Assembly: GCA_051819745.1 (NCBI GenBank)
Contig: JBNJGO010000002.1
Span: forward strand, 8,781-58,674
Origin: Nanobdellota archaeon
Lineage (GTDB): Archaea > Nanobdellota > Nanobdellia > Woesearchaeales > SKGA01
Reading direction: 5' to 3'
DNA: 49,894 nucleotides
Positions 47,789 through 49,888 of this stretch are shown piece after piece. The position numbers and the translations under genes were made by a program. The notes below the pieces were generated by a model, which had not been told where the DNA came from, did not search any database, and was given only the letters and a program-made list of their open reading frames with translations. The number at the start of each line of letters is the position of its first letter. Position 1 is the stretch's first letter.

Positions 47789-47876
47789 ATTTAACATCGG
47801 GCTTAAGGAGAGTTTTCAACGCAGTTGAAAATTCGGGCGGAGTCTGCAAGACGGAGCTCTTTAAGCCCTGTTAAGT
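47789..47876 (+). repeat. 88-nt attC-like imperfect palindromic repeat (D1)
   Basis: ATTTAAC-A-TC-GGGCTTAAGGAG...TTTTCAAC-gca-GTTGAAAA...AATTCGGGCGGAGTCTGCAA...CTCTTTAAGCCC-T-GTTAAGT. The arms pair over about 19-20 positions including G:T, with T9/C10 bulged. Confidence 0.7.
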
Positions 47877-47878
47877 CG

Positions 47879-47965
47879 CCCCGAAACTTCGAAGAAGTTG
47901 AGAGCCTGCAAGGCATGGGTCGAGGAAATCTTTCATTTCCGAAGAAGTTGAATAAGAGTAAGTTC
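47879..47965 (+). repeat. Second-type boundary repeat (D2) ending GAAGTTGAATAAGAGTAAGTTC
   Basis: Internal direct repeat CGAAGAAGTTGA (x2), hairpin GGAAAT-ctttc-ATTTCC (47924-47940), GTTGAAT core at 47947-47953; homologous to 40913-40980. Confidence 0.6.
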
Positions 47966-48016
47966 CATATATTAATAAGTTTGCTTTAGCAAACACCAGA
48001 ATTTATTTTTGGGCGT

Positions 48017-48760
48017 TTACTTCTCATCCCACAGCTTGCTAAAGAACTCTTTATAGCGATTAACCATACGGTTTGAGATAATCTCATAACAAATATTTTG
48101 ATCTCCCCACAAAGGCATCAAGATTCGATTCTTTCCAATAATCACTCCTGTCGGCATAGTGAGTTTGTGATGTTTAATTTTGAAATCTCTGTGTAAAACT
48201 TTCTTCAAATAAGAATTTTTTAATTGTGGATGAACAATTCCTCGAAGTTTAATTCCTTTCTCAATCCTTTTAAGATGATAATTGGAAAAGAATAAATCCA
48301 TTTCTTTACTTGTTAATTCATTAGGATTAATACTGAAAAACAAGTATTCATCATTTTTATTAAGTTCTGAAAGTAGGTTTTGGAAAGCAGCACTAATACC
48401 TTTAACACCTGTATAAATTTGAGTTGATTCTTGTTCTAACGAACCTATTTTTGATTTAATTTGAGGAATTAAAGATTCAACTTTATTGTTAACTTGGTTC
48501 AATTCTTCTTTTTGCTTTTCAACCAATTCAATGATTGATTGAGGATTAGTGATTCTAAATAACTTGGTCTTGTTCTCAATAGTTGTACAAACAAGACCTT
48601 TCTGAATGAGTTTTTCAAGAAGGAGATACACTTTGGAAGACGAAACTTTAGCAGTCTTCATAATCTTAAAAATAGGAGCTTCGCCTAATTGTACTAACGC
48701 ATTGTAAATACGAATTTCAGCATCTGTAAGGCCAATATTCTTTAAAATTGATAAATCCAT
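48017..48760 (-). CDS. TrmB-family transcriptional regulator
   Basis: 247 aa; N-terminal wHTH LGLTDAEIRIYNALVQLGEAPIFKIMKTAKVSSSKVYLLLEKLIQKGLV, then a coiled-coil and a C-terminal effector-like domain. Confidence 0.8.
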   Translation of the reverse strand: MDLSILKNIGLTDAEIRIYNALVQLGEAPIFKIMKTAKVSSSKVYLLLEKLIQKGLVCTTIENKTKLFRITNPQSIIELVEKQKEELNQVNNKVESLIPQIKSKIGSLEQESTQIYTGVKGISAAFQNLLSELNKNDEYLFFSINPNELTSKEMDLFFSNYHLKRIEKGIKLRGIVHPQLKNSYLKKVLHRDFKIKHHKLTMPTGVIIGKNRILMPLWGDQNICYEIISNRMVNRYKEFFSKLWDEK

Positions 48761-48791
48761 ATTTATTTGTAAACATAAGAAGTTTATATAA

Positions 48792-48812
48792 TTTTCCCCC
48801 TATGAGGGAAAA
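48792..48812. promoter_or_regulatory. Palindrome TTTTCCC-N7-GGGAAAA in the TrmB / unknown-gene divergent intergenic region (candidate operator)
   Basis: Perfect 7-bp inverted repeat between the divergent starts at 48760 and 48871, next to a TTTATATA-like box. Confidence 0.35.
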
Positions 48813-48870
48813 ATAATTAATAAACTAGAACCTGTTACTACTTTTAAAAGTAAATGAACTGGTTGTACAA

Positions 48871-49830
48871 ATGGATTTTAAAAAAATACGAGAAGAAATG
48901 GAAAAAGAATCGCATTTACGCGATAGAGCTTTTGGATTTGAAAATACAACCTCTAAATTATTTTTAGAAAGAATTGCATTACTTGAATCTGGAATACGAA
49001 CTATAAGAACACCTGAAAAATCCTCTTTACAAGATTCAAGTTTAGCTCAAGCGTCAATTCTGGAGCTACTCAAAGAAGCAAATAATTTTCTTTATTTCAA
49101 GAATGTACACGTAAAAATATCAGACATAGTATATAAAAGAAGGTTCTCATCTGAAGAAGAAATAAAGAAAACGGATTTTTTTAATCCTGCTGTTTTGCTT
49201 TATTCAGAATACAAATTAGATAAGGAAACTGGAAAACCAAGTCTGGAAGTAAAATTAACAAACCCCCTAACAAAAAATATACTTTTCTCAACAGAACTTG
49301 AAAATAAAGATAAAATTATTCATGATGATGAAAAAAGTTACGAAAGTTTTCACGAAGAAAATGTTCCCATAAAATTTTGCATTGATAATTATTTTTTCAA
49401 AACAGAAATTCAACTCAAACCAGAACGAACTCATAAATTACACAGGTATTCTCATGAAAAAAGCTTGATACATTACAACACTCTTAAAGAAATCTCTGAT
49501 AGTTTTGATGGAAATAAACATGTCTCTTTAAATCTAGGTTTTTCTGTAACTAATCCGAATTATCCTTATGCTATAACGAAAGTAGATTTGAAAAAACTCT
49601 ACGAGTATAATGAATATTTTGTATCTACAAAATTTGCAAAACATCTTAAAAAAGAAGATGCAATGAAATTATACCAATATACAGAAGAACACATGCCTAT
49701 TAGAAAAGATGGAACTCTTAAAGAAATTGGTAGGGGAGGAAAAGAATTTGATAGTAAATTCTCAACTGCTGTAAGTCTTGTTAAATATATGAATCAATTA
49801 AATGAACTTTTAGAGGGAAAGTATAAATAA
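48871..49830 (+). CDS. Hypothetical protein
   Basis: 319-aa uninterrupted ORF divergent from trmB; no family recognised. Confidence 0.5.
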   Translation: MDFKKIREEMEKESHLRDRAFGFENTTSKLFLERIALLESGIRTIRTPEKSSLQDSSLAQASILELLKEANNFLYFKNVHVKISDIVYKRRFSSEEEIKKTDFFNPAVLLYSEYKLDKETGKPSLEVKLTNPLTKNILFSTELENKDKIIHDDEKSYESFHEENVPIKFCIDNYFFKTEIQLKPERTHKLHRYSHEKSLIHYNTLKEISDSFDGNKHVSLNLGFSVTNPNYPYAITKVDLKKLYEYNEYFVSTKFAKHLKKEDAMKLYQYTEEHMPIRKDGTLKEIGRGGKEFDSKFSTAVSLVKYMNQLNELLEGKYK

Positions 49831-49839
49831 CATCCAAAA

Positions 49840-49888
49840 AAACGCCCAAAAATAAAAAGAACTTACTCTTATTCAATTCGACTTAACA
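49840..49888 (-). repeat. Inverted copy of the D-region boundary sequence (right inverted repeat of the TrmB module)
   Basis: Reverse complement reads TGTTAAGTCG-AA-TTGAATAAGAGTAAGTTC-ttt-TTATTTTTGGGCGTTT. This matches 47869-47878, 47948-47965 and 48002-48018 on the plus strand; the contig ends 6 nt later. Confidence 0.7.

Follow-up and report, generated by a model that had tools for sequence, protein, structure and literature searches.

Inverted repeats around a trmB gene pair as the probable ends of one cassette in an integron-like array of a Nanobdellota archaeon

Introduction

The window, that is, the whole stretch of 49,894 nucleotides analysed here, derives from an uncultured Nanobdellota archaeon of the order Woesearchaeales (assembly GCA_051819745.1, contig JBNJGO010000002.1, positions 8,781 to 58,674; contig C2 in what follows). 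At its right end, a gene encoding a TrmB-family transcription regulator and a divergent orphan open reading frame (ORF) lie between inverted copies of the same boundary sequence, which raises the question of what such an arrangement represents: a segment that can be flipped, a transposable element, a structured RNA, the remnant of an old rearrangement or a unit of another kind. It is considered likely that the inverted copies constitute the two ends of one cassette, comprising the TrmB gene and the orphan ORF, in an integron-like array whose cassettes would be moved by a Xer-like recombinase. The structure of the repeats, the family of folded sites to which they are joined, the complementarity of cassette ends across this family and the position of recombinase genes in related genomes are described below, together with the alternatives on which each of them bears.

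Structure of the inverted repeats

The inverted boundary sequence around the trmB gene and its divergent partner is real, and the coordinates given for it in a preliminary description of this DNA were confirmed. Three exact collinear blocks of 10, 18 and 17 nt within 47869-48018 recur in inverted orientation at 49840-49888, with 45/45 nt identical. On the plus strand, the left arm starts with block 1 (TGTTAAGTCG, 47869-47878), composed of the 3' half-core TGTTA and five cassette-specific nucleotides, which pairs with 49879-49888. Block 2 (TTGAATAAGAGTAAGTTC, 47948-47965) is cassette-specific, absent from relatives and pairs with 49859-49876, and it is followed by a one-sided insert of 36 nt (47966-48001) with the hairpin GTTTGC-TTTA-GCAAAC (DNA fold z = -3.2). 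Block 3 (TTTATTTTTGGGCGTTT, 48002-48018) pairs with 49840-49856 over 17 nt at 100% and overlaps the trmB stop codon (48017-48019) by 2 nt. The right arm begins 9 nt past the stop of the plus-strand ORF of 319 codons and reads on the plus strand AAACGCCCAAAAATAAA (49840-49856), aa, GAACTTACTCTTATTCAA (49859-49876), tt, CGACTTAACA (49879-49888) and CCGCGG, with which the contig ends. Read on the minus strand, this short form (49840-49888) is TGTTAAGTCG-AA-TTGAATAAGAGTAAGTTC-TT-TTTATTTTTGGGCGTTT, and the spacers between the blocks differ by 67 and 34 nt between the two arms.

A repeat search of the window recovered inverted arms of 18/26 nt and 17 nt, and the gapped alignment of arm against arm scored 84.2, far beyond the values obtained with 500 shuffles (40.0 +/- 4.8, maximum 56.5). 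With up to 3 mismatches allowed, the 18-mer block has two occurrences as compared to 0.11 expected. By itself, the 10-mer block is without significance (with one mismatch tolerated, 3 matches compared to 2.99 expected) and draws its meaning from the context only. The inner blocks have no other copy in the same genome and none in 40 relatives, the short-form arm junction finds no match elsewhere in the family, and the 36 matches to the 18-mer block in metagenome contigs, about chance level, all have unrelated flanks. A search for the same module at other locations with the same termini, as proposed in the preliminary description, hence returned no such copy among the relatives or with matching flanks in the metagenome contigs.

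The view that the left copy corresponds to the right copy with insertions holds, but its supposed 69-nt indel is not private to this locus. These 69 nt (47879-47947, plus strand), present in the left arm only, are a hairpin module, designated type I, with three small hairpins including GCCTGCAAGGC, and would protrude as a side branch if the arms were paired. The type I module occurs at the same place in contigs G009:C70, G001:C7, G002:C12 and G013:C4 of related genomes. In two congeners (G009:C70 and G001:C7), it accompanies a core of the Y-shaped folded site described below that is near-identical to the one adjoining the left arm, with other cargo; the short arm there consists of TGTTAAGTCGAA and a unique block, and the long arm of TGTTAAGTYG, the module and the same block. 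Since the layout and the module are the same in both congeners, the 69-nt difference is a conserved one-sided module.

This recurrence also bears on the possibility of a historical accident, in which an old inversion or inverted duplication in the array was followed by loss of hairpins from the right flank through slippage, leaving a structure without present function. The complete identity of the blocks alongside such unequal spacers, the proneness of hairpins to deletion and the restriction of the inner blocks to this genome would all suit such a history. An accident is nevertheless improbable, as the long-arm/short-arm layout with its module reappears in G009 and G001 around other cargo and other unique blocks, and extended paired ends are common in the family; recurrent layout and common pairing therefore argue for a maintained feature rather than a one-off event.

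A family of folded sites in a common orientation

The left arm adjoins a folded site, designated site C (47790-47876, plus strand). Alignment of 20 copies of such sites from the window and relatives revealed invariant termini, AACATC (5') and TGTTA (3'). They adopt a Y-shaped fold of ~87 nt with an outer stem formed by AACA/TGTT and containing a 2-nt bulge, and with two inner hairpins, one loop (CTGCAAG) being conserved. Compensatory changes are found at 13/25 pairs of this fold. One G:T pair is kept in 19 of the 20 sites, and many other G:T pairs but few A:C pairs are present, and therefore one strand can be recognized as the folded strand. The small loops in the folded elements are of the GNA type (GAA, GTA, GCA), known to form stable DNA mini-hairpins.

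A covariance model built from the aligned sites (R1) was used to search the window and 41 related genomes. In the window three sites were found, all on the plus strand: site C, which scores 93.5 bits on this strand versus 18.8 on the other and has TC as its 2-nt bulge (DNA fold z = -4.5), a neighbouring site at 42618-42732 and site B at 41646-41732 (71.5 bits). In the related genomes, R1 identified 88 sites distributed over 19/41 genomes, with up to 36 in a single genome, and all sites within any one contig share one strand, so that no inverted pair of sites is present. The longest ORF is antisense to the folded strand in 28 of the 38 cassettes that have an ORF.

Some candidates were set aside. 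A site A at 40.88 kb reached only E = 9.3 and breaks the complementarity rule described below, and is treated as a decayed remnant. The region between the trmB and orphan genes (AACAT...CCTGTTAC around a palindrome) was considered as a degenerate site and has no R1 support at E<=10. An interpretation of the G+C-rich elements as flanks of rRNA operons or RNase P-like RNA was dropped in view of many copies per genome and the lack of any Rfam match.

Complementary ends bracket each cassette

Complementarity of cassette ends was assessed over consecutive sites: the five nucleotides that follow TGTT in the left site were set against the five that precede AAC in the site to its right. Across cassettes it averages 4.36/5 (39 pairs, 26 of them perfect) as compared to 2.33/5 for the two flanks of the same site and 2.31/5 for random pairs, and none of 20000 permutations reach 4.36/5. 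When TGTT/AACA are counted in, the uninterrupted first helix measures exactly 10 nt in 19/39 cassettes (L011-L079 and the window) and is never longer, which suggests a helix of fixed length followed by a junction. The first helix of the trmB/orphan cassette is of this length, and pairing is 10/10 in this cassette, 10/10 in the five-gene cassette at 42733-47789, where TGTTAAATAC of the site at 42618-42732 pairs with GTATTTAACA at 47787-47796, and 9/10 in the cassette encoding a SurA-like protein. Local alignment of cassette starts with reverse-complemented cassette ends gave z>4 in 27/47 and z>6 in 14/47 cases. Thus, each cassette of this family has an inverted repeat of its own at the two ends, in most cases beginning with a perfect 10-nt helix and continuing with cassette-specific blocks. 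Paired ends of this kind are the signature that would be expected of units excised and inserted at a fixed position within the core, as in integrons.

Owing to the symmetry of the half-cores, the reverse complement of the 3' half-core (TGTTA...) resembles the 5' half-core (...TAACA), and therefore the right arm, CGACTTAACA|CCGCGG, is readable as the start of a further site in direct orientation. The best analogue of the trmB/orphan cassette, in contig G023:C2, comprises a TrmB-family gene on the minus strand and a divergent prenyltransferase gene on the plus strand between two full direct sites; its arms have common blocks of 7, 17, 18 and 16 nt, with G+C-rich hairpins inserted in the arm adjoining TGTTA. 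The suggestion that two cassette boundaries were captured in opposite orientation thus finds no counterpart in the family, where sites are co-oriented and matched inverted ends are the rule, as this analogue between direct sites illustrates.

The same observations decide on the idea of an invertible switch, in which inverted recombination sites would flank the two genes and flipping would change which gene faces which neighbour. The inverted repeats do start with the conserved core, and the genome holds two tyrosine recombinases. However, not one pair among the 88 sites in 19 genomes is opposed on the same contig, and TAACA of the right arm is the 5' half of a direct site, matching a direct insertion-site core in G009. 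To the extent that 11 nt can show, the right-hand repeat runs into such a direct site, an arrangement that the preliminary description had itself set against inversion. Both genes have putative promoters inside the segment, so a flip would switch nothing obvious, and ends of this type are present on every cassette of the family. A switch at this locus is accordingly very hard to sustain, and the inverted repeat becomes an ordinary property of the cassette family.

A transposon, or an element resembling a miniature inverted-repeat transposable element, mobilized by a transposase in trans and inserted beside a Y-shaped site, is also highly improbable. It would explain terminal inverted repeats beginning with TGTTA and one-sided insertions of the sort seen in decaying inverted-repeat elements. 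Yet protein profile searches revealed no transposase in or near the cassette, and a target-site duplication, looked for at both ends, is lacking (AAGCCC on the left, CCGCGG on the right). Past TGTTA the repeats are specific to each cassette and hence provide no common end for a transposase to bind, and the outer 5 nt belong at the same time to the conserved stems of the flanking sites. What stands of the earlier proposal is that the two genes probably form an independently mobile module, insofar as the unit is discrete, has matched ends and bears the sequence signatures of the whole family; its mobility is argued from those signatures.

The right end and array-linked recombinase genes

The end of the window is the true end of contig C2 (the genome comprises 52 contigs and 0.93 Mb). 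Its last 11 nt on the plus strand, TAACA-CC-GCGG (49884-49894), read as the beginning of a further direct site that is truncated where the contig stops, and are most likely an insertion-site (attI-like) core ahead of a recombinase gene, judging from related arrays. In at least 10 relatives, a tyrosine recombinase gene is located less than ~1 kb from the last site, on the folded strand and divergent from most cassette ORFs. In the relatives, the core AACA-NN-TATTA lies ~95-165 nt upstream of the start of the array recombinase gene, with the end of the last cassette directly before it. In G009:C70, the core upstream of the array recombinase is TTCGACTTAACACC|TATTATG, with a 14/14 nt match to the last bases of the window before GCGG. 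A somewhat different end is observed in the G002:C12 array (L011 15110-15500), which terminates in an insertion-site-like core, TATAACATCTATTAGGTCGAC, followed by a DUF2779 gene with no adjoining recombinase gene; the right half of this core, CCTATTAGGTC[G/A]ACTT, is repeated 350 nt further on.

The genome encodes two XerA-like tyrosine recombinases, on contigs C11 and C16, and protein profile searches found no IntI-type integrase in it. Scores with the integron integrase model TIGR02249 were 194-226 bits, below its cut-off of 265, the best family being archaeal XerA. Comparison of the C11 recombinase with VchIntIA (2a3v) yielded two aligned stretches, with 26 residues where IntI4 has 69, and hence the C11 protein lacks ~43 residues at the position of the IntI-specific domain. 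The array-linked recombinases of relatives have 259-283 amino acids. Towards them the C11 recombinase shows 42-49% identity in 9/10 comparisons and 32% to a divergent one in G038, while the C16 paralogue shows a uniform 38-40%. These values suggest that the C11 protein is likely the array-type paralogue, and the C16 protein would fit a housekeeping XerA.

Between the start of the C11 recombinase gene (G000:C11:23679-24630) and the end of its contig lie 110 nt, and this upstream stretch aligns with the region after the core in G009. The reverse complement of this contig end begins with TTTCTTGGTGGTG, and the spacing between AAC and ATG within the genus amounts to 126-135 nt. The end of C2 is probably followed by the reverse complement of C11 after a gap of ~6-15 nt. 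From this spacing and the similarity of the recombinases, we therefore infer that the trmB/orphan cassette is proximal to the recombinase gene, so that it would probably sit at the insertion site as the first cassette of the array. No contig of the same genome overlaps the end of C2, and an exact 27-mer of this end has no match in metagenome contigs. That C2 and C11 both end close to the predicted crossover core might reflect variation of cassettes in the sampled population.

A putative route of excision and re-insertion

Taken as a cassette, the unit would extend from just after TGTT(A) of one site to the position just ahead of (T)AACA in the next, with complementary bases at its beginning and end. 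Two neighbouring sites would be recombined by a Xer-like tyrosine recombinase, the product of a gene located at the end of such arrays, and the cassette would leave as a circle, with a predicted circle junction at 49888|47797 (...TTCGACTTAACA|TCGGGCTTAAGG...) and a predicted empty-site junction at 47796|49889 (...GTATTTAACA|CCGCGG...). In the circle, the arms would flank a single Y-shaped core and could pair into one long hairpin, in which helices of 10, 18 and 17 bp would follow one another, the first two separated by a branch formed by the 69-nt module and the last two by a small branch. The self-pairing site, presumably folded from a single strand, would then serve for re-insertion at the insertion-site core beside the recombinase gene. 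The two arms would thus represent the halves of the recombination hairpin of the cassette itself, split as long as the cassette resides in the array. When the right arm, site C and the left arm were joined, the sequence folded indeed into one continuous branched stem, in which 17+18+10 bp lead into the Y-shaped core while the module and the small hairpin branch off laterally, at -112.6 kcal/mol versus -79.4 for native context of the same length.

Several points weigh against this interpretation. The right-hand site is represented by its first 11 nt only, GCGG follows AACACC instead of the TATTA of relatives, and AACACC itself deviates from the AACATC that is invariant in the 20 aligned sites. 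The join between C2 and C11 is drawn from spacing and similarity, and the contigs do not overlap. An all-versus-all BLAST of the array loci returned common sites and modules only, with no common genes at new positions, and the support for recombination consists of sequence signatures. Moreover, G:U-type pairs are frequent, so the folded molecule could be RNA instead of DNA.

In the corresponding RNA-level alternative, the Y-shaped structure and the modules would be a structured RNA or part of an untranslated region, such as a terminator, insulator or small RNA, and the common blocks, located downstream of each of the two convergent genes, would be the 3' tail and T-rich terminator of this RNA. 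Besides the richness of the folded strand in such pairs, this would account for the inner blocks, which on that strand read TTTATTTTT...GTTTTTTT like archaeal terminators, and for the conservation of the CTGCAAG loop. Nonetheless, the complementarity joins the two flanks of entire cassettes over distances of 0.1-5 kb, beyond what a local RNA accounts for. Rfam yields no matching family, no suitably spaced promoter lies upstream of AACATC, and the elements are associated with a recombinase gene as well as with an insertion-site core. An RNA-level element is therefore held to be unlikely, and a cassette delimited by the two halves of its own recombination site remains the preferred interpretation.

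A more extensive model can be offered only tentatively. It envisages the arms and the one-sided module as the working part of a Xer-driven analogue of integrons, in which the arms would rebuild the site of the free cassette and, by their asymmetry, set the folding strand and the direction of insertion, a task that in integrons falls to the extrahelical bases that are read by the IntI-specific domain. In such a model, the trmB cassette would be positioned at the insertion site and the contig break would result from ongoing cassette turnover.

Cargo and genomic setting

The TrmB-family regulator of 247 aa (48017-48760, minus strand) matches Pfam PF01978 with E 1.2e-13, and full-length relatives of this protein were found in other arrays. 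It is separated from the orphan ORF of 319 aa (48871-49830, plus strand) by a divergent intergenic region (48761-48870), which carries a TATA-like TTTATATAA and a palindrome, TTTTCCCCC-TATGA-GGGAAAA (fold z = -2.7), is not a member of the site family and likely holds the promoters and operator of the gene pair, as judged from these motifs. The orphan ORF, presumed to be the target of the regulator, has no assigned function; it belongs to no Pfam or NCBIfam family, searches of 5.8 billion proteins and of 200 genomes of the order revealed no homologue of its product, and the single-sequence AlphaFold2 model of this protein is unusable (pLDDT 34). Neither the TrmB nor the orphan protein has an identical protein on record. 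Cassettes combining a TrmB-family regulator with a divergent unrelated gene occur in three more cases, two in L011 (G002:C12, 11404-12641 and 13498-15005) and one in L019 (G023:C2, 6484-7951), which shows that cassettes can carry their own regulator and promoters. The trmB/orphan unit is a self-regulated two-gene cassette of this sort, with ends paired over 45 nt.

From ~40 kb onward in the window, the G+C content falls from ~35% to ~28% and profile searches of the encoded proteins indicate a gene content of accessory kind, the genes being separated by structured G+C-rich elements. They comprise a NADAR fragment, a GDSL lipase, the SurA-like protein, an ABC importer, an alpha/beta hydrolase, a divergent prolyl-tRNA synthetase-like (ProRS-like) protein, TrmB and the orphan ORF. 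Judging by its paired ends, the five-gene stretch at 42733-47789 (~5 kb), encoding the permease, ATPase and binding protein of the ABC importer, the alpha/beta hydrolase and the ProRS-like protein, behaves as one cassette. The NADAR-domain ORF (40367-40833, minus strand) covers profile positions 56-136 of 163 only, has an apparently interrupted frame upstream of it and might be a cassette gene in decay at the array's distal end. About 1.1 kb from this decayed distal end, marked by the site remnant at 40.88 kb, an intron-containing tRNA gene (39652-39762, minus strand; 53.5 bits) is the sole Rfam family match in the whole window, with nothing credible in 47600-49894 even at E<=10; ARAGORN missed it and reported no tRNA in the window.

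Two further motifs were observed in the array. The motif GGGGAGTTCC/GGGGGAGTCCAG is found beside small hairpins in either orientation, in the window at 42841-42955 and 47738-47750 and in L011 (G002:C12) at 13448-13461 and 15054-15067; it is present in three tandem copies at 42.84-42.96 kb, and in G002:C12 it is part of the paired arms of one cassette. The second motif, AAGAAATGGAAATTTTATTGTATTTAAC(ATCG), a stretch of 28-32 nt ahead of site C (window 47768-47799), is 100% identical in genomes of other families, with the copies always at contig ends (end of G035:C23, end of G038:C19 and start of G038:C37). In G038 it is followed by a much shorter hairpin site and then by a recombinase gene. Such strong conservation is thus seen in A+T-rich non-coding DNA.

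Comparison with known systems

Integrons are the textbook device for capture and shuffling of genes and are defined by the IntI integrase and attC hairpins. The array described here resembles them in several respects: co-oriented folded sites separate accessory genes; a recombinase gene, divergent from most cassette ORFs, lies at one end of the array with an insertion-site core ahead of it (in at least 10 relatives, and probably in this genome); the folded strand is antisense to most ORFs, as is the attC bottom strand; and the opening bases of each cassette show complementarity to the beginning of the site that belongs to it. The cores bear a resemblance to those of integrons, reading ACTTAAC/GTTAAAT here; on the ORF strand, site C agrees with RYYYAAC/GTTRRRY. 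However, the recombinase is XerA-like and without the IntI-specific insertion, and each site folds into a Y-shaped three-way junction that has a 2-nt bulge and no symmetric spacer, whereas attC is a hairpin with an unpaired central spacer and extrahelical bases. Complementarity of the ends, with a 10-nt helix followed by cassette-specific helices, far exceeds the 6-7 nt of integrons. One-sided hairpin modules and cassettes that hold 2-5 genes and have their own promoters, and even regulators, are further differences from integrons.

In archaea, integrons whose integrases have the IntI-specific domain and whose attC sites fold like bacterial ones have been described, and the accompanying tables contain genomes of Woesearchaeales and Pacearchaeales in which 2-4 attC sites occur and IntI is missing, i.e. 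clusters of attC sites lacking integrases (CALINs) (Ghaly et al. 2022, PMC9668308). No literature was found that links such arrays to Xer-type recombinases or describes extended self-pairing cassette ends. Were the system active, gene-cassette platforms would have arisen, or diversified, beyond IntI, and DPANN archaea with very small genomes would possess a dedicated means of exchanging accessory genes that includes self-regulated two-gene units. The Y-shaped core with its arms would in that case also offer a simple substrate for studying Xer-type enzymes on folded DNA.

The Hin, Gin and Fim inversion switches require two complete sites in inverted orientation. The trmB/orphan unit is similar to them as a short gene segment bracketed by inverted repeats, but here these repeats form the ends of a cassette that lies between direct sites. 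The pdif modules of Acinetobacter plasmids are genes bracketed by XerC/XerD sites, which are 28-bp duplexes with alternating orientation along the plasmid. Discrete gene modules, Xer-type sites, mutually inverted half-sites facing the module and a presumed Xer-family enzyme are features in common with them. The comparison with Xer/dif modules made in the preliminary description is therefore apt with regard to the associated Xer-like recombinase but does not extend to the sites, which do not alternate as in pdif and are instead folds of ~87 nt, all co-oriented, beside a dedicated recombinase paralogue. The CTX phage integrates as a folded single strand via XerCD, and as in such elements, a Xer-type recombinase would act here on a site made by intrastrand pairing of two inverted segments. 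CTX-type elements, however, are whole phage or plasmid genomes at chromosomal dif, whereas the present units are arranged in cassette arrays with an insertion site of their own. The logic of integrons appears to run here on a plain Xer-like recombinase, Y-shaped sites and cassette ends that pair over tens of bases.

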